Below, piece after piece: positions 7,018 through 58,703 of a stretch of DNA of 64,000 nucleotides. The stretch is from a virus (lineage: Duplodnaviria > Heunggongvirae > Uroviricota > Caudoviricetes), in IMG/VR virus record IMGVR_UViG_3300045988_010208; one strand, given 5' to 3'. How positions within the stretch are numbered: position 1 is the first letter of the stretch; each line of letters starts with the position of its first letter. The notes beneath the pieces are model-generated. The model saw only the letters and a program-made list of their open reading frames with translations, made no database searches and was not told where the DNA came from. Position numbers and translations under genes: made by a program.

Positions 7018-9369
7018 ATGGCAGATTACAAGTTGAGTGAATTAAACTCAATCGATACAATCCGTTCAGATGACCTTCTTCATGTCAGGGTTAAAAAGAG
7101 ACCTGAAATGCTGGGTGATGAAGACCGTCGAATGACCTATCAAGATTTCTTAGCATCTTTTAAGCTTGAAAGATTTGTTCAGATTGCTGGTAGCACTATG
7201 ACGGGTGACTTAGGGATTGTTAAGTTACTTTATGGTGGTAAGGCAGTCTTTGACCCTACAGGCTCTTCTGAGATTAATATTGGGGATGTTTTAAAGACTT
7301 TTAAAATTAACGCAAATGGTCTTAAACTAACTATTGCAGATGCTTCGAGGTCAGCAACTGTTTATCATACTCTGAATAAACCAAGTCCTAATGAACTTGG
7401 GATGAGAACTAATGAAGAGAATGATGCAAGATATGCAAAACTGGCTAACTCGAATACGTTTAAAGCCAAGCAAACTATTACATCGAATGGTGAGATTTTA
7501 ACGCTAGTCACCCCTGCGGAGGCGAGTTCAGCGTACTGTGCCCTTGTAGGTAGAGACGCGAGTAATGAAAAGAATTGGGCTATTGGGAACCTAATTAGAG
7601 GCAGCTTTGATGTTCAAATCAAGAGTAGACAAGGTTCCATCCTCACTCTAGGTACAACTGTAACGATTAATAAGACCCTTGCTGTTGTTGGTCAGGTCAA
7701 ACCTTCTGACTTCTCTAACTTAGATGCTAGATACTTTACTCAGACAGTTGCTAATCAGAGATTTGCACAGTTAGCTGGCAATAACACATTTAGTGGTTCT
7801 AATATTTTCACTAATAATTTTGTTATTAAGAAGAATGCTAATGCTATTACTATTCAAAATGTAGATACAACTACGGCTTTGTATATCCAAGCAAGAAAAT
7901 CAGATGGAGCTAATAAGTGGTACATTGGCAATGACGGTGATGAGAGTATTGTAAACATCTATAACTATTTAGCAAAAACACAAATCTCACTAGGCAACAC
8001 CATTACTATGAGCAAAACAGTCCAAATTGGTGGTCAAGTTCAACCTTCTGATTGGACTAACATTGACTCTAGATATATTCCGGCAGCAACATTAAGTACA
8101 ATTGCAAGAACTAATGCACAAAATACTTTTAATGGTGTACAGAAAGTTGTTACTGATGCTGAAGCCCTAATTGTGAAAAACTATACTCAGAACAGACCAT
8201 TGTATATCCGTGGTGTGGACACTGCTAATGTGTCAAGGTGGTGGGTAGGTGTTGGTGGGGCAGATACTAATGATGTAACACTAAATAACAGTTTTTCTGG
8301 CACTCAGTTAGTTTTAGGTAACTCATCTGCAAGTATCAATAAGACATTAACCCTAGCAGGGCAGATTCAACCCTCAGATTTCTCTAACTTAGATGCCAGA
8401 TACTTTACTCAATCAGCAGCTAATCAGGAATTTATGTATGCAGGTTCCACAGGTACTGGTAGTGAAGTAGGTGATAGTGATGGCATTGCTTGGAATGCTA
8501 AAACTGGTCTGTATAATGTTACAGGTTATGGTGGAGGCTCAACACAACTTGTTTTCCAAATGTATCAGGGTGCAAGCTCTACTCCCTCTGCTCAATTAAA
8601 ATTCAACTACAGGAATGGGGGTTTTTGGTATAGGTCATCAAGGGATGGTTTTGGTTTTGAAGAGGACTTCACACAAATTTATACAGAGAAGTATAAACCA
8701 ACTCCTTCAGCTATTGGTGCATACACTAAAGCAGAGACTGACCAGAAGATTGCAGAAGCGATTAGTGACTCTACAGACCTGAATAAAATCTATCCAGTAG
8801 GGATTGTGACATGGTTTAACAGTAATGTTAACCCTAATACAGCACTCCCTGGGTTAACTTGGACGTATCTGAACAATGGTGTTGGTAGAACTATTAGAAT
8901 TGCAGCAGCAAACGGTTCAGATGTTGCTACAACTGGTGGTTCAGATTCTGTAACGTTATCTGTTGGTAACTTACCTTCACACACTCATAGCTTCTCTGCG
9001 ACTACTTCATCATTTGACTATGGTACTAAAACCACTAACACTACTGGTGCTCACACCCACTCAGTGAGTGGTTCTACTAACAACACTGGTGCTCATACAC
9101 ATACAGTTGGTGGTCGTTATGGTGGTGACTCTATCGGTGGTAAACAACGTGTTCAGGTATCTGGTACAGAACAGGTATCTAGCTCTGCTGGTGCTCACGC
9201 TCACACTGTATCTGGTACTGCTGCCTCTAACGGAAACCATGCTCACACTGTTGGTATTGGTGCTCACAGTCATACAGTTAGTGGTAACACTGGTGGTACA
9301 GGTTCTGGTTCAGCATTTAGTGTAACTAACCAGTTCTATAAGCTGATGGCTTGGGTAAGAACTGCTTAA
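7018..9369 (+). CDS. long tail fiber protein (receptor-binding) with internal repeats and HxH tip domain
   Basis: 783 aa; three internal ~40-aa repeats (..GQVKPSDFSNLDARYFTQ..); C-terminus LPSHTHSFS..GAHTHSVSG..GNHAHTVGIGAHSHTVSG paralogous to 5800-6966. Confidence 0.65.
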   Translation: MADYKLSELNSIDTIRSDDLLHVRVKKRPEMLGDEDRRMTYQDFLASFKLERFVQIAGSTMTGDLGIVKLLYGGKAVFDPTGSSEINIGDVLKTFKINANGLKLTIADASRSATVYHTLNKPSPNELGMRTNEENDARYAKLANSNTFKAKQTITSNGEILTLVTPAEASSAYCALVGRDASNEKNWAIGNLIRGSFDVQIKSRQGSILTLGTTVTINKTLAVVGQVKPSDFSNLDARYFTQTVANQRFAQLAGNNTFSGSNIFTNNFVIKKNANAITIQNVDTTTALYIQARKSDGANKWYIGNDGDESIVNIYNYLAKTQISLGNTITMSKTVQIGGQVQPSDWTNIDSRYIPAATLSTIARTNAQNTFNGVQKVVTDAEALIVKNYTQNRPLYIRGVDTANVSRWWVGVGGADTNDVTLNNSFSGTQLVLGNSSASINKTLTLAGQIQPSDFSNLDARYFTQSAANQEFMYAGSTGTGSEVGDSDGIAWNAKTGLYNVTGYGGGSTQLVFQMYQGASSTPSAQLKFNYRNGGFWYRSSRDGFGFEEDFTQIYTEKYKPTPSAIGAYTKAETDQKIAEAISDSTDLNKIYPVGIVTWFNSNVNPNTALPGLTWTYLNNGVGRTIRIAAANGSDVATTGGSDSVTLSVGNLPSHTHSFSATTSSFDYGTKTTNTTGAHTHSVSGSTNNTGAHTHTVGGRYGGDSIGGKQRVQVSGTEQVSSSAGAHAHTVSGTAASNGNHAHTVGIGAHSHTVSGNTGGTGSGSAFSVTNQFYKLMAWVRTA
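9010..9365 (+). repeat. paralogous tail-fiber tip segment (copy 2)
   Basis: See 6550-6960; about 85% identical stretches at nucleotide level. Confidence 0.8.
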
Positions 9370-47572: not shown

Positions 47573-47596
47573 AAGGCTGCTTCGGCGGCCTTTTTT
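47573..47596 (+). terminator. intrinsic terminator
   Basis: GGCUGC-UUCG-GCGGCC hairpin followed by UUUUUUAUUU. Confidence 0.65.
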
Positions 47597-47657
47597 ATTT
47601 GTATTTTGTGCAGAGTGCTGTATAATTGTTGTCACGATAAACTAAACAGGAGAACCA

Positions 47658-50907: not shown

Positions 50908-51693
50908 ATGGGTATTGTAAAAATTATCAATGGCGATATCTTTGACGCATTTGATAAAGGTAAGTTTGACATCATTGGTCATGGTTGCAACTGTATGAAT
51001 TTCATGGGTGCAGGTATTGCAGCAACTATTTCTAAGCGTTATCCAAAAGTGTATGATACTGATACAGAAGTTTACCTGTTTGCAGGTGGCATTCGTCACA
51101 AACCCTGTGAAAATTTACTAGGCAATTTCTCTGTAGCACGTTTAAAACAAGGTCGTATAGCTAACCTTTACACCCAACTTCATACTGGTAAAGATGCCCG
51201 ATACAGTGCTTTAGAGTCATCTTTGAAACAGCTTAACAGATACTGTGAAGTTAACCAGTTGAAGAAAGTTGGCCTGCCTATGATTGGTGCAGGTATCGGT
51301 GGACTTGACCCTCAAGCTGTCACAGTTATCATCAATCAGGTGATGAAGAGCGTAGATGTTTACCTGTATGTCTACGAGGCAGAGATGTACAACAAGTTAC
51401 ACTCAGGTTGGAAGAACTACTGTGAACCAGAATACTTTGCGGGTGTAGTAGTGTTCACAGACAACACAGTTACCCTCTTCAGACGAAGAAAAGGTAAGAT
51501 ACATCAAAGTAACCCTCCGGTTGAAAAGATGTCTCTAAGTAACGCTCTAGTTACCCACCTGTCGAAGAGCAATCACAGAATTGCAGTAACATTTGGCAGT
51601 GATGCAGATACATATATCTATGCAAGAACTGATGAGGATGTTGAGGAAATTTTCTCTTCACCAGAAGTTACCTTCTTAGACGCAAAGAACTAA
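50908..51693 (+). CDS. macro-domain-like protein (putative ADP-ribose binding/processing)
   Basis: 261 aa; N-terminal IINGDIF...IIGHGCNCMNFMGAGIAATISKRYP pattern typical of macro/Appr-1-p-type domains; C-terminal 100 aa unassigned. Confidence 0.5.
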   Translation: MGIVKIINGDIFDAFDKGKFDIIGHGCNCMNFMGAGIAATISKRYPKVYDTDTEVYLFAGGIRHKPCENLLGNFSVARLKQGRIANLYTQLHTGKDARYSALESSLKQLNRYCEVNQLKKVGLPMIGAGIGGLDPQAVTVIINQVMKSVDVYLYVYEAEMYNKLHSGWKNYCEPEYFAGVVVFTDNTVTLFRRRKGKIHQSNPPVEKMSLSNALVTHLSKSNHRIAVTFGSDADTYIYARTDEDVEEIFSSPEVTFLDAKN

Positions 51694-51724
51694 GAAACTC
51701 TGTAGAATATTCACAATAGATTAA

Positions 51725-51768
51725 GCCTTTCTTATCTGGTAAATTTTTCAGGTAAGGAGGGCTTTTTT
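51725..51768 (+). terminator. terminator-like hairpin
   Basis: GCCUUUCUU ... AAGGAGGGC stem (two G-U pairs, long loop) followed by UUUUUU. Confidence 0.4.
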
Positions 51769-51775
51769 ATTTCAG

Positions 51776-51945
51776 AATTGTGCAGGTAGAGTTCTGTAGA
51801 GAAATCTGTAGAGAGAATTTTGAACTCCAAAGGGAAAATCCATTTTCAAGTTGTGCAGGTAATCTCCAAAGAGCTTTTTCATTTTCAAAACGTGCAGAGA
51901 AAAATCAGGTCGGGCAAGAAAAATCATTTTAGAATTGTGCAGGTA
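51776..51945 (+). promoter_or_regulatory. four spaced copies of motif AAAATC-ATTTTCA-RAATTGTGCAGGTA
   Basis: Copies near 51776-51788, 51849-51861, 51889-51900 (degenerate) and 51933-51945, in an ORF-free 420-bp region between the macro-domain gene and the small-gene array. Confidence 0.5.
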
Positions 51946-52121
51946 GGTGGGTGTAGGTGGGGATGTCACCATTTCTCACAAGGCTACCACATCCGAAAAG
52001 AAAAGTCAACAGAAAAATTTGTAGCGGATTGAAAAATAATTCTTGATTTGTGTTCTGTTTTGTGGTATTCGCGCGCACCCGTTTCATTGCATTTTTGCCA
52101 AAAATATTTTTAAAATTTTTC

Positions 52122-52180
52122 TTGACTATTCGAACGGGGTTATCTAGTATTTGCATCAACGGGGAGGAAATGACTTCCCC
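52122..52180 (+). promoter_or_regulatory. type-1 promoter-stem-loop cassette (copy 1)
   Basis: TTGACT -17 nt- TAGTAT, then hairpin GGGGAGG-AAATGA-CTTCCCC at the predicted transcript 5' end, then conserved leader to ATG 52214; AT-rich UP-like tract upstream. Confidence 0.65.
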
Positions 52181-52213
52181 ACTAAATAAACCCTTAAACT
52201 AGGAGATTCTAAA

Positions 52214-52597
52214 ATGGCATATCGTGCACCTAAATTCATCAATAAAGACAATTTCCGCAATGCACTGGAAAAATCACTTGATGAGAATTTTACAGGTCAG
52301 GTTATTGTTGTACACGCATTCAATTTTAAATATGACGTAAATGGTAACAGGATTAACCATTACACGGCAACCATGTTAGACGGTACTCTGTCAAGTGAAA
52401 AAGCCGTACTGAATGCACTTGCTGGACGTGGTAAAAACCTGATAAAATGCAATAAGAGACGTTATCAGGGCGGCGCATATGGTTACGATGATGCTGTTTA
52501 TCATCTTGAGAATATGGGCTATTCAGTGGAAAAAGCTGGAGTGTCTCAAATAATCGGTAGTGATGGTTATGTAACAATCTTCAAAATTAACGAATAA
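52214..52597 (+). CDS. hypothetical early protein
   Basis: 127-aa ORF with AGGAG RBS, preceded by a type-1 cassette. Confidence 0.5.
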   Translation: MAYRAPKFINKDNFRNALEKSLDENFTGQVIVVHAFNFKYDVNGNRINHYTATMLDGTLSSEKAVLNALAGRGKNLIKCNKRRYQGGAYGYDDAVYHLENMGYSVEKAGVSQIIGSDGYVTIFKINE

Positions 52598-52602
52598 AGT
52601 AC

Positions 52603-52638
52603 TTTACAAGGGGCTTATAGTTCGATAAAGTAAGCCCC
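52603..52638 (+). promoter_or_regulatory. type-2 stem-loop cassette (copy 1)
   Basis: TTTACA then hairpin GGGGCTTA-N13-TAAGCCCC, then conserved leader AGATAAAGAGCTTTACCACTAAATCCTAAA. Confidence 0.55.
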
Positions 52639-52683
52639 AGATAAAGAGCTTTACCACTAAATCCTAAATTGGAGAACTTAAAA

Positions 52684-52941
52684 ATGGCTATTATCAAAAA
52701 CGTTGTAATTCCTGCAAAAACTCGTGATGACGCTCGCGTTATGGCTAAAAAGTTATGCGGGAAAGTGGTTGACAACGGAAAACAATCTAATGTAAGGTGG
52801 GGCGTGAAGGCTGATAAACATTTAACCTTAAAACGCAGTTCAAATAACCTTTTTAAAGGTGTAAAAACACTCGGTAAAGTGAACGTATTCACTAAACAAG
52901 GTTACAAAATGCACTTATCATTAACTGGCAATTTAACCTGA
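52684..52941 (+). CDS. hypothetical early protein
   Basis: ORF-track start at 52669 is a TTG codon; ATG at 52684 (MAIIKNVV..) has a GGAG RBS at correct spacing; 85 aa. Confidence 0.5.
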   Translation: MAIIKNVVIPAKTRDDARVMAKKLCGKVVDNGKQSNVRWGVKADKHLTLKRSSNNLFKGVKTLGKVNVFTKQGYKMHLSLTGNLT

Positions 52942-52949
52942 TAAAGTAC

Positions 52950-52985
52950 TTTACAAGGGGCTTAAAAGTTGATATCTTAAGCCCC
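52950..52985 (+). promoter_or_regulatory. type-2 stem-loop cassette (copy 2)
   Basis: TTTACA + hairpin GGGGCTTAA-N11-TTAAGCCCC + conserved leader up to ATG 53030. Confidence 0.55.
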
Positions 52986-53029
52986 AGATAAAGAGCTTTA
53001 CCACTAAATCCTAAACTGGAGATTCAAAA

Positions 53030-53542
53030 ATGAAAACTGTAGACGCTACCTTTGAAGTTGTAAAAGAAAAATTCACCGTTATCTATGAAGCGGTAAATTG
53101 CTACGAAGCAAGCCATAATCTTGATAATTGGAAGTTTACAGATGACCATCAAGGCGGCGTGACTATTAAAAACCCTAACTGTCAGCGTAACGATTTTAAA
53201 TATGCAATCCCTTTAAATTATAGCCTTAAACAACTTTCTAGTGACTATGCAAAACAAGGCCGGGAAAACCCATCAAAACAGGCTTACATCAGCTTACAGA
53301 AAGAACTAGAAAGAGATTTAGAAGCTTCAGAATACAACCTTGCCGCGAAAGTTATCGATGCAAATGGTCAAACAATTTTAGACAGTTTTTATCTAGGATA
53401 TGCCTTTGATTGGTGCTATAGTGACGGTGATGATTTAGAGGATAGACTAAAAGAAGAGGTGAGTAATTCAGACGCAGAAACTGAAGTATTAGAACGTTTG
53501 GAATCATTAAAAGACTCAGTGATGAATATCTTTAAGAACTAA
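53030..53542 (+). CDS. hypothetical early protein (acidic)
   Basis: 170-aa ORF after a type-2 cassette. Confidence 0.5.
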   Translation: MKTVDATFEVVKEKFTVIYEAVNCYEASHNLDNWKFTDDHQGGVTIKNPNCQRNDFKYAIPLNYSLKQLSSDYAKQGRENPSKQAYISLQKELERDLEASEYNLAAKVIDANGQTILDSFYLGYAFDWCYSDGDDLEDRLKEEVSNSDAETEVLERLESLKDSVMNIFKN

Positions 53543-53551
53543 ATAGATTTC

Positions 53552-53586
53552 TTTACACGGGGTTATCAAGCTGATAAGATAGCCCC
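53552..53586 (+). promoter_or_regulatory. type-2 stem-loop cassette (copy 3, stem with compensatory change)
   Basis: TTTACA + hairpin GGGGTTATC-N10-GATAGCCCC (U-G replaces C-G of other copies) + leader to ATG 53631. Confidence 0.55.
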
Positions 53587-53630
53587 AGATAAAGAGCTTT
53601 ACTAACAACCTTAAACTAGGAGATTCTAAA

Positions 53631-53927
53631 ATGAAATTATCAAATAAAGTCCGTGAAAATCTAAGCAAGTTACTTAACAAAATTGATTTTATTGAGACAT
53701 CAAGGAATAGTCATGATGTTATGGAATGGTTACACGGAAAAATAAAAGGCCGTCGTGTAGTGATTTGCTTATGGAATAGTTGCAGGGAGTATAAAAAACC
53801 TGTATTGCAGGTCAATATTTATGATGATACTTTTAAAAGCCCTGTAAAGTCTAAAAGCGATTTATTAGAATCTTATGAGATAACTGTAAGTGGCAAAGTA
53901 TCACGTAAAGAGGAAACACCATGTTAA
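53631..53927 (+). CDS. hypothetical early protein
   Basis: 98-aa ORF after a type-2 cassette. Confidence 0.5.
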   Translation: MKLSNKVRENLSKLLNKIDFIETSRNSHDVMEWLHGKIKGRRVVICLWNSCREYKKPVLQVNIYDDTFKSPVKSKSDLLESYEITVSGKVSRKEETPC

Positions 53928-54253
53928 TGACTGGCATCACTGCAATCATTGCCATTCTCGCGCTTTATAAGGCATATAAAGCCTATAATCTAGCAAATAA
54001 GGCAATCACACAGCAGGTTAGCAATAACCTTGTAGAAAGCTTTCTAGGGCGCCTCAGTGATGAGCAAATAAAGCGGCTAGAGATGAGCTTCAGATATAAA
54101 GCGAAAACCTATCAGATAAGTGACATCTTCAAAGATGATTTTCAGTTAGTCGATGATTATAATTCACTGATAAATGCTTTAAATATCAGTGACTTGAAAG
54201 ACTATTACGCTGTAATTGTCCAAGAATTGAGCAAACGAAAACAAAGTGTTTGA
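53921..54253 (+). CDS. hypothetical early membrane protein
   Basis: 110 aa; N-terminal hydrophobic helix MLMTGITAIIAILALY; ATG overlaps upstream stop. Confidence 0.45.
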   Translation: MLMTGITAIIAILALYKAYKAYNLANKAITQQVSNNLVESFLGRLSDEQIKRLEMSFRYKAKTYQISDIFKDDFQLVDDYNSLINALNISDLKDYYAVIVQELSKRKQSV

Positions 54254-54309
54254 CACTGGTTTTTAGATAGATTAAATTACACATCAACGGGGAGGGAATG
54301 ACCTTCCCC
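54250..54309 (+). promoter_or_regulatory. type-1 promoter-stem-loop cassette (copy 2)
   Basis: TTGACA -17 nt- TAAATT, then hairpin GGGGAGGG-AATGA-CCTTCCCC, then leader to ATG 54345. Confidence 0.65.
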
Positions 54310-54344
54310 ACTAAGTAAAGTCCTTAAACTAGGAGATTCTAAAA

Positions 54345-54548
54345 ATGGCTATTATTAACGGCTTACACATTGAAGCTACACACATCAAAGATATTAAAGT
54401 TGGTGATGTAGTTCTCTTTCACGGCGTAGAAAAAACCGTCACGGCGAAAGATATCAAAGAGGATTCTTTCATGGGTAGGACTCTTTTCGGTGATTCTTAT
54501 TGCTTAGGTTACCTTGCAGTTTTAAAAGTTGTCAAAATTAACAAATAA
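54345..54548 (+). CDS. hypothetical early protein
   Basis: 67-aa ORF, AGGAG RBS. Confidence 0.5.
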   Translation: MAIINGLHIEATHIKDIKVGDVVLFHGVEKTVTAKDIKEDSFMGRTLFGDSYCLGYLAVLKVVKINK

Positions 54549-54553
54549 AGTAC

Positions 54554-54589
54554 TTTACAAGGGGCTTAAAAGTTGTTACCTTAAGCCCC
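54554..54589 (+). promoter_or_regulatory. type-2 stem-loop cassette (copy 4)
   Basis: TTTACA + hairpin GGGGCTTAA-N11-TTAAGCCCC + leader to ATG 54635. Confidence 0.55.
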
Positions 54590-54634
54590 AGATAAAGAGC
54601 TTTACCACTAAATCCTAAACTGGAGATTCAAAAA

Positions 54635-55177
54635 ATGAAATGCTTTCACGGTACTACTCAAGAAAACTTTATCAACCTGATTAATAATGGTGATAAGCCA
54701 TCAGGTGCATGGAATTGTTCGGATATGGATGGCAATTTTTACGTATACCCAGAAAATAAAATTTATGGTGACGATGAGGAAGAGATAGTATCCGAAGGTA
54801 TTCAACAGGCGTTAGGAAATGCCACTATCACGGCAGCTTTCCAGATGAAAACCCAAAACATTGTTATCTTGGAACTTGATATTCCAGAGGATGAATTAAA
54901 TGATGATTATTCTTGTGATAATATGTCTGGCGTAGCAAGTTTTACAGAATACTTCGATTTAAATTGGATTAAAAAGGTTTACGTAACCGAGTTTAATGCG
55001 ATGTTTTCGCCTTTTTGTCTTCCTTCATTGGATAACCCGAATTTAAACTATCTTGATGAGTCTCTGGAACTTCTTGCTAAAAGCGTTCAACAGTCGGACA
55101 GTATTCAGGTTTTTTGTGACATCATGGATACACTGGCAGGAAACATCGCAGAAGAGGATTTAAAGAGCTTTTTTTAA
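54635..55177 (+). CDS. hypothetical early protein (acidic)
   Basis: 180-aa ORF after a type-2 cassette. Confidence 0.5.
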   Translation: MKCFHGTTQENFINLINNGDKPSGAWNCSDMDGNFYVYPENKIYGDDEEEIVSEGIQQALGNATITAAFQMKTQNIVILELDIPEDELNDDYSCDNMSGVASFTEYFDLNWIKKVYVTEFNAMFSPFCLPSLDNPNLNYLDESLELLAKSVQQSDSIQVFCDIMDTLAGNIAEEDLKSFF

Positions 55178-55243
55178 AAACCTATGTAATCACCTTATAA
55201 ACACTAATCAGCCCCTTGTAGGGGCTTTTAGAGGACTTAAATC

Positions 55244-55477
55244 ATGCTTACAACCGTTTATCTCATCCTCTCAATTTGTAATGGTCATTCATGCGATTTT
55301 AAAGGGCTTGAAGAGTTTACAGGAAGTAAAGAAAATGCCATTCAGGTGTGCCAGATAGCAAGACAAGACTACCCCGCCAGTGACGACATTCAATGCTACT
55401 TTAAAACAGAAGATGACGACGGAATCTATTTCGACAGTGTTGATGGTCAATATGAAATTATCATTGAAAAAGACTAG
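55244..55477 (+). CDS. hypothetical early protein
   Basis: 77-aa ORF; upstream hairpin-like AGCCCCTTGTAGGGGCT. Confidence 0.45.
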   Translation: MLTTVYLILSICNGHSCDFKGLEEFTGSKENAIQVCQIARQDYPASDDIQCYFKTEDDDGIYFDSVDGQYEIIIEKD

Positions 55478-55534
55478 ACAAGCCTGATAAAAGTCTGTAA
55501 ATTGTCAATCAACGGGGAGGGAATGACCTTCCCC
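55475..55534 (+). promoter_or_regulatory. type-1 promoter-stem-loop cassette (copy 3)
   Basis: TAGACA (overlapping the stop of 55244-55477) -17 nt- TAAATT, then hairpin GGGGAGGG-AATGA-CCTTCCCC, leader to ATG 55569. Confidence 0.6.
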
Positions 55535-55568
55535 ACTACATAAAACCCTTAAACTAGGAGATTCAAAA

Positions 55569-55910
55569 ATGGCTTATGTAACCGTAATTACCGATAAAGC
55601 TGACTCATCTTGGTCAACTCAAGTAAGTGATAAGATGACACCTATGCAGTGCCTAAAATACTTTGAGCAATGGAATAAAGGCGAGGATGTAAGCCCCTTC
55701 CAAGTGATGCAGATTATCCATACAGATAACGAAGGGAAGAAAACAACTCTGAATAGTGAGTACTACGCAAGCCGTTTTGAAACGAGAAGTAAAACAATGA
55801 AGCTCTTACGTGAATCCGGTTATCCTCATATTGCCGCTCTAATCTGGGATGACCTGTTAAAAAGTCAGCGTATCAGCTATGTAAAACCTGAAAAAATATT
55901 CATCAGTTAA
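55569..55910 (+). CDS. hypothetical early protein
   Basis: 113-aa ORF after a type-1 cassette. Confidence 0.5.
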   Translation: MAYVTVITDKADSSWSTQVSDKMTPMQCLKYFEQWNKGEDVSPFQVMQIIHTDNEGKKTTLNSEYYASRFETRSKTMKLLRESGYPHIAALIWDDLLKSQRISYVKPEKIFIS

Positions 55911-56039
55911 TCAATAACTTATAAAAAACTTTTAAAAAAGTGTTGACAATACCTCTTGACATTGGTAACTTTGTTCGAGGGGGTTTATCTAAAAGGGATT
56001 CACTTAAAAGATTCTTTATAGATAAGCTTAAAAAATTGC

Positions 56040-56095
56040 TTGCAATCAGCTATCAAAACAAGTAAATTACTAATCAACGGGAGGGATAACCTCCC
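56040..56095 (+). promoter_or_regulatory. type-1 promoter-stem-loop cassette (copy 4, shortened stem)
   Basis: TTGCAA -17 nt- TAAATT, then hairpin GGGAGG-GATAA-CCTCCC (one base pair lost from both arms), leader to ATG 56130; extra TTGACA motifs at 55940-55980. Confidence 0.6.
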
Positions 56096-56129
56096 CACTA
56101 AATAAAATCCTTAAACTAGGAGAGTCAAA

Positions 56130-56660
56130 ATGAACAAGTTTAAAGCTATCAACTACATTCGTTCAAATGCTGTAATGTCTAAGCCTGTTAAAGACACATA
56201 TGAGTTCCGTTGTAATGGGGTACACTTTGCAACCATCACCAAATCAGAAAACGGGGCTTATTATGTACATCGTCGTAATGTTGCAACCGTTGTAGTCTCT
56301 CACTTTATGCAATCTGTAGCGGAACTATTGCCGTTATTCTTAGAAATTTATCTAGATGAGTGTAAAAACGTTCGTAACCACGTTAAAAACCTTTTAAACG
56401 GTTATAAAATGGCTTATGAACGTTCTATCAAGTCCTTAAACAAGTTCTATAAAGCCCCTGTAAATACTGTTTCAATGGCCTACAGTGTAAGCGGTGAGTT
56501 GGTTAGCCTCTTCGAAGTGGAAGAAATCGAACTCTATGACTCACGTCCTAGCGGTTACTCTAAGACTCTAGGAGAAGGTTTAACCTTCAATATCAAGAAC
56601 TTAGAAAAAACTTTAAAAGATATTGAAAAAGATATTGACGAAACAATCAAAAGTCTGTAA
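56130..56660 (+). CDS. hypothetical early protein
   Basis: 176-aa ORF; its last codons overlap the next cassette promoter. Confidence 0.5.
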   Translation: MNKFKAINYIRSNAVMSKPVKDTYEFRCNGVHFATITKSENGAYYVHRRNVATVVVSHFMQSVAELLPLFLEIYLDECKNVRNHVKNLLNGYKMAYERSIKSLNKFYKAPVNTVSMAYSVSGELVSLFEVEEIELYDSRPSGYSKTLGEGLTFNIKNLEKTLKDIEKDIDETIKSL

Positions 56661-56694
56661 ATTGTCAATCAACGGGGAGGGAATGACCTTCCCC
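56635..56694 (+). promoter_or_regulatory. type-1 promoter-stem-loop cassette (copy 5)
   Basis: TTGACG -17 nt- TAAATT (overlapping stop of 56130-56660), then hairpin GGGGAGGG-AATGA-CCTTCCCC, leader to ATG 56740. Confidence 0.6.
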
Positions 56695-56739
56695 ACTAAA
56701 TAAAACCATTAATCAACTTCCTAAACTGGAGATTCTAAA

Positions 56740-56988
56740 ATGGCTACTATCCGCGCAACTGTTAACGAATTTGGCTTCTACTCTCTGGACGTTAAATTTG
56801 ACCTTGTAGGTACTGATAACGCCTTTGAAATGGTGAAAGGCCTTATCAGCCAGACCATCAGTGACTACAACCCCTCTGATGAATTCTGGAAAGAAACAAA
56901 ACAGGAAGCTCTCAAAGAGGGTTATACATACCACTACTGGGGTGAAAAAATTGTCTCCCTGTACTACGACAAAGAAGGCACTAACTAA
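56740..56988 (+). CDS. hypothetical early protein
   Basis: 82-aa ORF, last gene of the plus-strand array. Confidence 0.5.
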   Translation: MATIRATVNEFGFYSLDVKFDLVGTDNAFEMVKGLISQTISDYNPSDEFWKETKQEALKEGYTYHYWGEKIVSLYYDKEGTN

Positions 56989-57025
56989 ACGCCGCAACGG
57001 GGCTAAATAGCCCCAGATACCTTAA

Positions 57026-57051
57026 CAGCCCCGTTTAAGGGGCTTTTTTAC
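57026..57051 (+). terminator. intrinsic terminator ending the plus-strand array
   Basis: AGCCCC-GUUUAA-GGGGCU hairpin followed by UUUUUU; preceded by a cassette-like GGGGCT-AAAT-AGCCCC remnant (56999-57014). Confidence 0.65.
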
Positions 57052-58703
57052 GTCTATCAAATTCCTTTCCAGAATCTTAAAACCCACCTAACAAGTCAGA
57101 ACTTTACCACTGATTCGATAGAATCTATCCCAGACCTTAAAAAATAATAACTCTATAGTCTACTCTATAGCATTTTATCAAATCAACTTAAATATAAGCC
57201 CATAACCCGAAAGGGAAGGGCAACCCCTTAAACGCTCTATAAAGCTCTATAACAGCCTTATCAACCTAACTTAAGCAATCATATTAACCCACTCTAAAAA
57301 GCCCTTCCTAGAGCTTCCCAGAGCCTTAAAAGAATCTTATAAGGGTGTAAGCTTTATCATCTCGTTAGTATTCTTGTGAATATCTAAAAAGGACTTGTTA
57401 GTGTCTTAAAAGTATGTTATAGGGGCTTAAAAGTTACGTAAAAGTAGCTTAAAAGTTACGTAAATGCTAGCCCCCTTAACATTTTCTTAACAATTTCTTA
57501 ACAAACCCTACATAGTTATGCTTTTAAGGCACTTGTTAGCCCCTTGTTAAATCTCTGTTAAGACCACGTAAAAGCCTTGTAAGAGTCTTTGACATAGCCT
57601 TTAAAGCTCCTGTAAAGCCCTATAAAGAGGTGTCTGTATAGTTGGGGTGTAACTACTAGGAAGAGACTTAAAAGGGGCTATACAGAGCTTTTAAGAGGGC
57701 TATTTAGAGAATCACTAAGAGGAGAAGGGAACGATAAGAAAGAAGAGTTGTGTTTGTAAACAACCACTGTGACCATGTTAATAGCTTGTTAAAAAGATTA
57801 AACACTTGTTAGAAACTTGTTAATTATCTTAACAAAATAACTCTTTAAAATTAACTTGTTAGCTCTTGTTAGTCATCTGTTAAGATTCTGTAAAGCCTAT
57901 TCAGCACTTGTTAGGAAACTGTTACAGCCTTGTTAGTTCTGTTAAGAAACTGTTAAGACCTTTGAAGAGTTGTTAAGAAGATGTGAGAACTGTTAAGAGA
58001 TTGTTAAGGATATTTTAAAATTTTGCAAAGTACTTGTAAGGGAGCTGTTAAGGGCTACCAAGCAGATATACATCTTCTACAGATATTTTTGAGTTCCTTC
58101 AAAGACCCTAAAAAATGACTTGATAGTCCTATTTTATAAAAATTTTAAGATTTTGAATAATTACCTATACAGTCTTTTAAAAATACAGGTAGAAACAGGC
58201 TTATAAGATACCTTGTTAATACCGTGTTAGACCTTGTGAGATAAGGTCTGTAAAGATATTCCTGTTAAGTTTGTTAAAACAGTCTATATAGAGGTTTAGT
58301 AATACCTAGTGAACACCTATAGAGGGTATCATAGCTGACATAATGGGTTACTGTTAAGTAACACAGATAACCTAGAGATTAAGAGGTGTATAGGAGCTTC
58401 TAAGAGGGTGTAGAGGGATGATTAAGGTGATTGTATAGGTTGTTAAGAAGGCTTGTTAGAAGAGTGTTTAGAAGGCTTGTTAGAGGGCTAGTTAGAAGGG
58501 TTATACAGAGGGGCTATTAAGACCACTAGATAGTTACTAAGATACTATATAGTACTATATAACTATATAGAGAGTAAGATTAAGAAGGTTGTTAAGAAGG
58601 GTAGATATTTTATTCACATATGATGGTGACCCAGAGGTTGGGACAACCAATAAAATTTTATAAAAATTAAAAAGCCCCCAATTAAGGAGGCTCTTAAGAT
58701 ATT
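57052..58703. repeat. ORF-free region dense in short degenerate direct repeats
   Basis: About 1.65 kb with no ORF of 60 aa or more on either strand; roughly 35 copies of YTGTTARR (CTTGTTAG, CTGTTAAG, TTGTTAAG), many CTATAKAG-type copies, a 17-bp direct repeat CTTAAAAGTTACGTAAA x2 near 57428-57465, TATATAG clusters near 58540-58570. Confidence 0.8.

Follow-up and report, generated by a model that had tools for sequence, protein, structure and literature searches.

The viral record IMGVR_UViG_3300045988_010208 from IMG/VR, a 64,000-nt stretch of DNA referred to here as the window, carries an array of four same-strand (+) copies of a ~27-bp unit at 51761–51946. The array sits in a 520-bp gap (51694–52213) between a macro-domain gene and the first gene of a terminal block of small genes. 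It occurs at a single locus, its DNA sequence is under purifying selection, it neither encodes a protein nor forms a stable RNA structure, and it is dispensable in the laboratory. The favored reading, given a probability of about 40%, is that the units are lineage-specific recognition sites for a sequence-specific DNA-binding protein and that the array would act as an accessory control or boundary element. Among the collections searched (IMG/VR, JGI metagenomes, and GenBank phages), the array is found only in Ounavirinae; it represents a familiar type of element in a subfamily-specific form not described before.

The 1-kb stretch around the array matches 226 phage records with identities up to ~96%, and virtually every one is a Felix O1-like myophage that infects Escherichia, Salmonella, or Shigella. 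Based on this identity, the window was assigned to Felixounavirus (subfamily Ounavirinae). No description of the motif was found in the searched literature, and the array is not among the direct repeats of ≥24 bp listed in the Felix O1 genome paper (PMC3185647).

Anatomy, distribution, and conservation of the array

Each unit follows the pattern A/T run, [C/T]ATTTT, N-R-A-NNN, GTGCA, GGTA, with an A/T run of T5 or A5 depending on the copy. The exact 11-mer TTGTGCAGGTA is present at 51778, 51851, and 51935, all on the + strand, and a degenerate copy, ACGTGCAGAGA, is found at 51889–51899. With ≤1 mismatch, TTGTGCAGGTA has 7 matches, a count reached in 0 of 100 dinucleotide-preserving shuffles, and the wider pattern ATTTTNRANNNGTGCA has 5 matches in 64 kb, 4 of which fall within 173 bp on one strand. 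A profile hidden Markov model (HMM) built from relatives detects exactly four units in the window (nhmmer, E 3e-7 to 2e-5) and no further unit elsewhere in it with E<1. These results bear out the four spaced copies described in an earlier note, which had been made from the sequence alone.

Unit 1 (51761–51790, GGGCTTTTTTATTTCAGAATTGTGCAGGTA, E 1.3e-5) and unit 2 (51834–51861, GGAAAATCCATTTTCAAGTTGTGCAGGTA, E 1.8e-5) contain the first two exact 11-mers. Unit 3 (51873–51900, GCTTTTTCATTTTCAAAACGTGCAGAGA) is degenerate at its 3′ end and has the best score in the window (E 3.2e-7), and unit 4 (51919–51946, GAAAAATCATTTTAGAATTGTGCAGGTA) has an E of 7.3e-6. Start-to-start spacings are 73, 39, and 45 bp. 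Units 2, 3, and 4 are each preceded by CTCCAAAGRG or GGTCGGGCAAG, and unit 4 together with its leader GGTCGGGCAAG is the most conserved unit. The sequence AAAATC(C)ATTTT, said in the earlier note to precede every copy, precedes copies 2 and 4; copies 1 and 3 have TTTTT(T/C)ATTT(T/C) instead. A one-mismatch copy of the unit core, ATTTTAAAATTTTGCA, is present at 58012–58027 near the inner edge of the terminal repeat and is probably meaningless, ~1.6 such matches per window being expected by chance.

In the complete 87-kb genome of phage UAB_Phi87, the HMM finds exactly four units at one locus. The motif was found at no other intergenic region of the window or of the UAB_Phi87 genome using regular expressions and nhmmer. 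The earlier note had proposed a genome-wide search and had named absence of the motif from other gene fronts, combined with no transcription start or protein binding mapping to it, as a finding against its regulator-site reading; one locus only was found in both the 64-kb window and the 87-kb relative, which counts against a middle or late promoter class. A two-unit pattern retrieves 29 IMG/VR contigs, all 51–94 kb and most 84–94 kb in length, each with a single array locus of 3–4 units (the pattern used misses some first units). Those examined further carry Ounavirinae-type units, and many coincide with contigs of macro-gene loci. JGI metagenomes yield 78 pattern matches; 3–4 HMM-grade units are confined to 13 of these, which are also BLAST matches to the window, and ~60 others fail the unit HMM. 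BLAST with the array matches 295 phage records, by organism name almost all phages of enterobacterial hosts with Felix O1-like record lengths, and the weakest listed match is an unrelated small virus at chance level (E = 0.6). No array was found in 5,426 complete E. coli genomes, hence there are no host or prophage copies in them. An unrelated 167-kb metagenome contig, Ga0315278_10000017 (locus L141, 250–480), has a tandem array with a ~21-bp repeat, TTGTGCAGGTG[C/T]ACGGAAGG, in which some units have the form [C/T]ATTTT(C/T)GATT(T/C)GTGCA(GGTA/TGTG), very like the phage unit; an XRE-type helix-turn-helix gene adjoins it. The likeness may be accidental, as one of about 60 chance pattern matches, or the array may consist of iterons of a different element.

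The gap can be aligned across Felixounavirus, Suspvirus (SUSP2), Mooglevirus (Michonne), and Kolesnikvirus (Erwinia phage phiEa104). Layout and orientation are constant in all genera: macro gene, terminator, 3–4 units, variable cassette, and AT-rich promoter region. In a MAFFT alignment covering six phages from these four genera, the unit cores show no variation, and those of units 2 and 3 are invariant in all six. This alignment is independent of the regex-based selection of units underlying the position-frequency table, whose "invariant" columns are partly circular. Unit 1 is kept in Felixounavirus, Suspvirus, and Mooglevirus and has no counterpart at its position in phiEa104, which has four units spaced 37, 37, and 39 bp that end in GTGCATAG instead of GTGCAGGTA. 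Between the window and phiEa104, identity is 34% for the macro-domain protein, ~60% for its gene, and 89.5% over 38 nt for unit 4 together with its leader.

Variability was measured as the fraction of variable columns among 22 Felixounavirus sequences. It amounts to 22% in the motif cores, 26% in the inter-unit spacers, 46% at third codon positions of the macro gene, and 81% in the cassette after unit 4. Because the cores (p = 3e-4) and spacers (p = 1.5e-3) vary less than neighboring third codon positions, the array DNA sequence is under purifying selection. In Mooglevirus, a fifth and weaker motif-like copy lies directly 3′ of the rIIB terminator, fused to a TATAAT −10 (GCCTTTTTTATTTGAAAAATGTGCAGGTTAGTGTATAAT; L034 13042–13067 and L039 13651–13675). 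The homologous site of the window (47596–47626, …TATTTGTATTTTGTGCAGAGTGCTGTATAAT) does not reach the HMM cutoff. If the motif is a protein-binding site, this fifth copy would be placed like an operator of the operon that runs up to the four-unit array.

Coding capacity, RNA structure, and insertion tolerance

The earlier note had described the region as lacking any open reading frame (ORF) of at least 60 aa; the gap in fact contains listed ORFs of 66, 70, and 76 aa, none with a coding signature. Variable columns by codon phase are 20/17/20 for the array and 28/25/27 for the 66-aa minus-strand ORF, compared with a strongly 3-periodic 37/15/122 for the macro gene. Depending on the genus, the units stand 37, 41, 73, or 75 bp apart, which shifts any reading frame, and the gap ORFs chosen by annotators lie on different strands. 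Given the lack of codon periodicity, the frame shifts, and the disagreement on strand, the gap is considered non-coding, and the 66–76-aa ORFs were rejected as genes. Felix O1 gene 14, bas63_0096/0097, Michonne gp131 (Michonne131), and E9 CDS0131/0132 are ORF calls within the array gap, and they look like mis-annotations of the repeat array. Gene 14 was annotated at 8042–8254 as a 70-aa product without homologues (PMC3185647); it corresponds to a + strand ORF over units 2–4 (window 51820–52032).

An Rfam search of the gap returned nothing below E = 1. Folding z-scores are +1.38 for the + strand and +0.97 for the − strand, worse than shuffles, and a stable RNA structure was rejected for both strands.

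Insertion data are available for phage Bas63. The PhageMaP study reports insertion fitness of +0.24 to +0.98 for "gene 96" in every condition shown, within the range of its non-essential neighbors, and counts fitness <0 as essential (bioRxiv 10.1101/2024.10.10.617714). This gene is bas63_0096, because it is the next after gene 95, the "putative phosphatase." It is a spurious minus-strand ORF (locus L009, 1279–1434) that covers units 1–3 and touches unit 4. Insertion somewhere within the array is therefore tolerated on laboratory hosts.

Candidate functions of the array

The array is clustered, same-oriented, deeply conserved, non-coding, and unstructured, and the multi-site protein-binding reading is favored for these reasons. 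Each site would consist of an A/T run, then [C/T]ATTTTNRANNNGTGCA, plus 3–4 lineage-specific bases. One sequence-specific protein would bind all sites and would more likely be encoded by the phage than by the host; the lineage-specific 3′ bases (GGTA vs TAG) hint at a co-evolving phage protein, not a host factor. The array lies 100–360 bp upstream of two promoter blocks, P1 and P2. With its sites filled, the array would become a nucleoprotein complex, tuning P1/P2 and/or insulating the terminal block from upstream transcription. Its role would be accessory rather than essential, and the insertion tolerance in Bas63 fits an accessory regulator site. We infer the binding, the kind of protein, and the transcriptional output from this pattern. 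The earlier note had also read the copies as regulator sites; the general form of that proposal is retained, and its middle or late promoter version is not, as the motif is confined to one locus. Its other version, a shut-off operator array for the early genes, would have to contend with motif-free promoters elsewhere in the downstream block, sites 100–360 bp from the nearest promoter blocks, and insertions without fitness cost in Bas63. The Fis sites upstream of rrnB P1 are a known multi-site array before a strong promoter. Like them, the units lie a few helical turns apart upstream of a strong promoter of the UP-element type and would serve as a non-essential modulator. They differ in that the units do not fit the Fis consensus by eye and lie at −175 to −360 of P2 with a hypervariable cassette between.

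Several observations weigh against this reading, the main weakness being that no binder emerged from the consensus comparisons and domain scans. No known host-factor consensus fits all units; CRP, Fis, IHF, Fur, LexA, PurR, Tus-Ter, Chi, and KOPS were compared by eye and none fits consistently. Pfam and PHROG recognize no DNA-binding domain in the ten proteins neighboring the array. The sites are ≥100 bp from the promoters and none overlaps a −35 or −10, and none of the ~10 other terminal-block promoters carries the motif by HMM; a simple operator model fails on these two grounds. Inter-unit spacing drifts by ±2 bp between genera (39/41/37 and 73/75), which argues against strict helical phasing of a cooperative complex. 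No transcription start site or RNA-seq map of a Felixounavirus was found in the searched literature.

The strongest rival, itself unlikely, is a dispensable replication origin, and it ranks as such because of the iteron-like form of the array and the neighboring A/T-rich promoter. The units would be iterons for a factor that binds or marks the origin, and the A/T-rich stretch at 52095–52121 with P2 would provide unwinding and priming for a T7-like replisome of primase-helicase and polymerase, as one of several origins. Known iteron arrays include the O-protein sites of the lambda ori and the iterons of P1, F, pSC101, and R6K. The array resembles them in that an asymmetric site of ~20 bp is repeated directly 3–5 times, all copies pointing the same way, within non-coding A/T-tract DNA at a single locus per genome, here near an A/T-rich region and a strong host-type promoter. 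It differs in its period, 37–45 bp (first interval 73–75) versus ~22 bp, and in lacking an adjacent initiator gene, a skew signal, and essentiality; no initiator-like gene was seen among the scanned neighbors. The replisome is T7-like, and no replisome of the T7 type is known to use iterons, which counts against an origin. The T7 primary origin, a promoter with AT-rich DNA, is itself dispensable, so the insertion tolerance in Bas63 is compatible with one. Felix O1 encodes a T7 gp4-like primase-helicase, in keeping with an origin of this kind (PMC3185647). GC and AT skew are unchanged across 50–54 kb, a weak test since skew here follows gene orientation, and cumulative-skew extremes lie at ~9–10 kb, ~21 kb, and in the terminal region. 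All four units of phiEa104 (L008 1502–1630) are 8/9 DnaA boxes on the minus strand (CTATGCACA three times and TTATGCACG), as an origin might have, whereas Felix-type units show at least 3 mismatches to the box. DnaA presumably recognizes the same box in both Erwinia and E. coli. Because only the Erwinia-phage units fit that box, DnaA binding is unlikely to be the conserved function. The A/T-rich stretch also doubles as the UP region of P2 and is separated from unit 4 by 150 bp that include the hypervariable cassette. Whichard et al. assume that early transcription starts from divergent promoters in the interval separating genes 96 and 97, close to the DNA-replication genes, which does not favor an origin at the array. 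An element acting at the RNA level is distinctly improbable. Here the gap would be transcribed by late terminator read-through or from an unrecognized promoter, and the unstructured A/U-rich units would bind or titrate an RNA-binding protein or nuclease. Folding below the level of shuffled controls could then be read as a region kept single-stranded. Reverse transcription PCR (RT-PCR) of Felix O1 was positive for ORF14 with a maximum at 25 min, compared with a peak at 5 min for ORF13 and ORF16 (PMC3185647). This is a weak hint of gap transcription: the primers amplify only unit 4 and the cassette (~95-bp amplicon), the assay was not strand-specific, phage-DNA carry-over is possible, and most tested ORFs also "peak" at 25 min. 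The array also lies directly 3′ of the terminator with the largest predicted stability in the Felix O1 table, no promoter was called upstream of it on either strand, and the T5/A5 swap would be neutral for bendable duplex DNA and a large change for an RNA site.

A checkpoint for DNA transactions at the boundary of the terminal segment, either an entry halt like the T5 iss or a terminase recognition site for packaging, is highly unlikely. Its more specific form, of slimmer probability still and drawn by analogy, would have the array stop or time DNA entry in a polar manner at the inner edge of a ~6.3-kb segment that enters first, with T5-like two-step delivery in a myovirus. If true, delivery would occur in two steps with only a 0.6-kb terminal repeat and a signal unlike the DnaA-box inverted repeats of T5. 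The position fits such a checkpoint: the terminal repeat is 5.5 kb away and the right physical end ~6.1–6.3 kb, or 7% of the genome, and between the array and the end lie only small genes of unknown function, many with their own promoter-like modules. A polar signal would be expected to have all its units in one orientation, as they are here. As in the T5 iss, a large untranslated repeat-rich region is conserved amid diverged coding regions and stands at the inner edge of a small-gene terminal block, ~7–8% of the genome from the end (bioRxiv 10.1101/866236). The T5 iss, however, lies inside a 10-kb terminal repeat, consists of inverted repeats with paired DnaA boxes, and is believed to be essential (Davison, bioRxiv 10.1101/866236). 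In the window, the ~0.6-kb terminal repeat is elsewhere, the repeats are direct, the units are not DnaA boxes except in the Erwinia phages, counterparts of the large inverted repeats IRC/IRD are absent with only short inverted repeats present, and insertions in Bas63 are neutral. Nine terminal-block genes scanned have no Pfam match and thus no recognizable A1/A2-type function, and Felix O1 DNA is not known to enter in two steps. Terminase small-subunit recognition arrays, such as lambda cosB R1–R3 and the SPP1 pacL/pacR boxes, likewise have 3–4 copies of a ~16-bp site in bendable A/T-tract DNA. Those arrays adjoin the cut site, whereas the ends here are 5.5 kb away in a region with its own dense system of octamer repeats, and the array was rejected as a terminal repeat or packaging site. 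There is an equally small chance that the units have no present function and persist by descent as decayed tandem duplicates of a module made of a terminator tail and a promoter upstream region. The 5′ half of units 1 and 3 (CTTTTT[C/T]ATTT) is indeed the usual terminator tail of this phage (PMC3185647, Table 2), and the fifth copy of Mooglevirus follows a terminator in the same way and is fused to a −10. Neutral relics are contradicted by units far better conserved than neighboring synonymous sites, with 3–4 copies retained at 34% flanking protein identity, a divergence that neutral relics would not outlast, and by free replacement of the adjacent cassette. Scarcely credible is a phage-specific middle or late promoter class. 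Units 1 and 2 do have a TAnnnT hexamer after GTGCAGG (TAGAGT and TAATCT), and unit 4 has TAGGTT in relatives with a C-rich cassette, compared with TAGGTG in the window. TAnnnT is missing from unit 3, from unit 4 of the window, and from 3 of the 4 Erwinia-phage units; the motif occurs in no other intergenic region of the window or the complete genome, no gene follows units 1–3, and the most conserved bases (GTGCA) would fall in the spacer. Readings of the units as sigma70, sigma54, sigma32, T4 MotA-type, or extended −10 promoters were rejected by eye, as none fits all units. The promoter scan called no site in 51761–51946 on either strand and the units have no −10 at sigma70 spacing, in agreement with the earlier note that the motif is not a sigma70 consensus.

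Surroundings of the array and meaning for Ounavirinae

The gap opens with an intrinsic terminator on the + strand (51723–51773, t13 in Felix O1), identified by terminator scan as a 17-pair hairpin (51723–51764) followed by a T-run. Its predicted −21.8 kcal/mol is the largest value in the Felix O1 table of predicted terminators (PMC3185647, Table 2). It closes the gene run from rII to the macro-domain gene, and its T-tail overlaps the 5′ part of unit 1. A 12-bp tandem on the + strand, AGAGTTCTGTAG / AGAAATCTGTAG (51788–51814), yields the local direct repeat already seen in the earlier note, CTGTAGAGA at 51794 and 51806. A third TCTGTAGA is located at 51699, and the gap holds 3 of the 7 + strand copies of TCTGTAGA in the 64 kb.

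The hypervariable cassette (51947–52000, +) is ~54 bp long and G/T-rich in the window. The GGTG-rich run and the inverted repeat of the earlier note are both present here, the former as GTAGGTGGGT ×1.9 at 51943–51961 by TRF and the latter as GGATGT (51961–51966) and ACATCC (51989–51994). Many relatives instead carry an unrelated polypyrimidine (C-rich) form. An invertible segment was rejected, since by eye the C-rich form, when reverse-complemented, is unlike the G-rich one. Two IMG/VR contigs stop at the same base within the C-rich cassette, one of them running into a Nextera adapter, and a third is chimeric from just before unit 4 (loci among L019, L020, L022, L030, and L062). For phage Andreotti, the GenBank record breaks off in a fold-back, 34 nt inside the cassette. 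These breaks likely reflect coverage or assembly failure at the G/C run, and may reflect a physical discontinuity such as a nick.

Beyond the cassette, a conserved AT-rich block read from the sequence (52001–52071, +) ends in the promoter-like P1: TTGATT (52043–52048), a 17-nt spacer, and TGg-TATTCG (52066–52071). Its promoter status is doubtful because the −10 lacks the final T, and the promoter scan did not call it. AAGAAAAGTCA...TTTGTAGCGGA at 51998–52030 may be a decayed fifth unit. The interval 52001–52121 has 21% variable columns and is kept in Felixounavirus, Suspvirus, and Mooglevirus. P2, together with its UP-like A/T-rich stretch, occupies 52095–52150 (+) with TTGACT (52122–52127), a 17-nt spacer, and TAGTAT (52145–52150); it matches 9/12 in the promoter scan and is conserved across genera. 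A 5′ leader module follows (52155–52213, +), composed of the hairpin GGGGAGGAAATGACTTCCCC (52161–52180) and a ribosome-binding site, and then the ATG. By BLAST, this module (query 462–520) has five other intergenic matches at 87–93% in UAB_Phi87, plus shorter partial matches. A promoter/leader module made up of a UP-like A/T run, a TTGAC-type −35, a leader hairpin, and a ribosome-binding site is repeated before many terminal-block genes (52600–56700) at 80–95% identity, and probably drives gene shuffling. Relatives differ by whole genes in this block. The extra 486 bp of some relatives is not a duplicated repeat, as was considered, and consists of two extra small genes inserted after P2, as in the D1-2-type phages, where they lie right after it.

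Upstream, the macro-domain gene (50908–51693, +) encodes a 261-aa protein (Pfam Macro, E 5e-7; phrog_335) annotated in Felix O1 as phosphatase/ORF13; the macro domain is of the phosphatase or ADP-ribose-binding kind. It closes a co-directional run from rIIA and rIIB to macro. The ~120-aa C-terminal half of the protein is uncharacterized, and the gene is non-essential in Bas63 (gene 95). The protein is a candidate for reversing ADP-ribosylation-based defense. Downstream, the ORF list gives a terminal block of ~11 small genes (52214–56988, +), flanked by the array on one side and the right terminal repeat on the other. Most of these genes have their own promoter-like intergenic module in front. 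Nine were scanned against Pfam without a match, and all fall into PHROG families of unknown function. The earlier note called the block an early array, which is an assumption: in Felix O1, RT-PCR places the genes downstream of the array in a mix of 5-min and 25-min classes, and the 2010 genome paper describes temporal regulation as not understood (PMC3185647). Terminal clusters of small self-promoted genes are familiar from the SPO1 host-takeover module and the promoter-early-stem-loop cassettes of T4. The block resembles them in its own host-type promoters and repeated leader module; they have no counterpart of the four-unit motif.

The homologue of the direct terminal repeat, and with it the physical genome ends of relatives, maps to ~57470–58059 of the window. 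The record of phage E9 has identical 580-bp ends that map there, and its termini were determined with PhageTerm (PMC11737134). For UAB_Phi87, a 608-bp terminal repeat was mapped using Bal31 and SpeI, with fragments of 4322 and 2819 bp (PMC4837284). In silico, SpeI gives a single 6568-bp fragment at the place homologous to the terminal repeat; the expected sum is 6568 + 608 = 7176 bp and the reported sum 7141 bp, a 35-bp mismatch. The homologue of the array gap falls in another SpeI fragment, of 40 kb. The GenBank record of UAB_Phi87 (JN225449; L004+L005) has identical 542-bp ends in the tRNA region, which are an assembly overlap and not the experimentally mapped 608-bp repeat; 87603 − 542 + 608 = 87669, which matches the published genome size. 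In the window, 57000–58700 is a 1.7-kb stretch without an ORF of ≥60 aa between convergent gene blocks, and it holds the terminal-repeat homologue. Octamers of the CTTGTTAG / CTGTTAAG / CTGTAAAG type have 21 + strand matches in 57–59 kb, compared with ~0.6 per kb elsewhere, and are probably packaging and end-formation signals. The CTGTAGAGA pair of the array gap is loosely similar to this octamer family.

Phages of the Felix O1 group have a classic role in typing and biocontrol. The array is conserved beyond neighboring synonymous sites and, across genera, far beyond the neighboring protein, and it borders a terminal block of small, functionally uncharacterized genes. Knowing what binds it would also clear up a recurrent mis-annotation (Felix O1 gene 14, bas63_0096/0097, and Michonne gp131). 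Its tolerance of insertion makes it experimentally accessible, and it could serve as a safe engineering site. Identifying the binder would provide a first handle on regulation in Ounavirinae.

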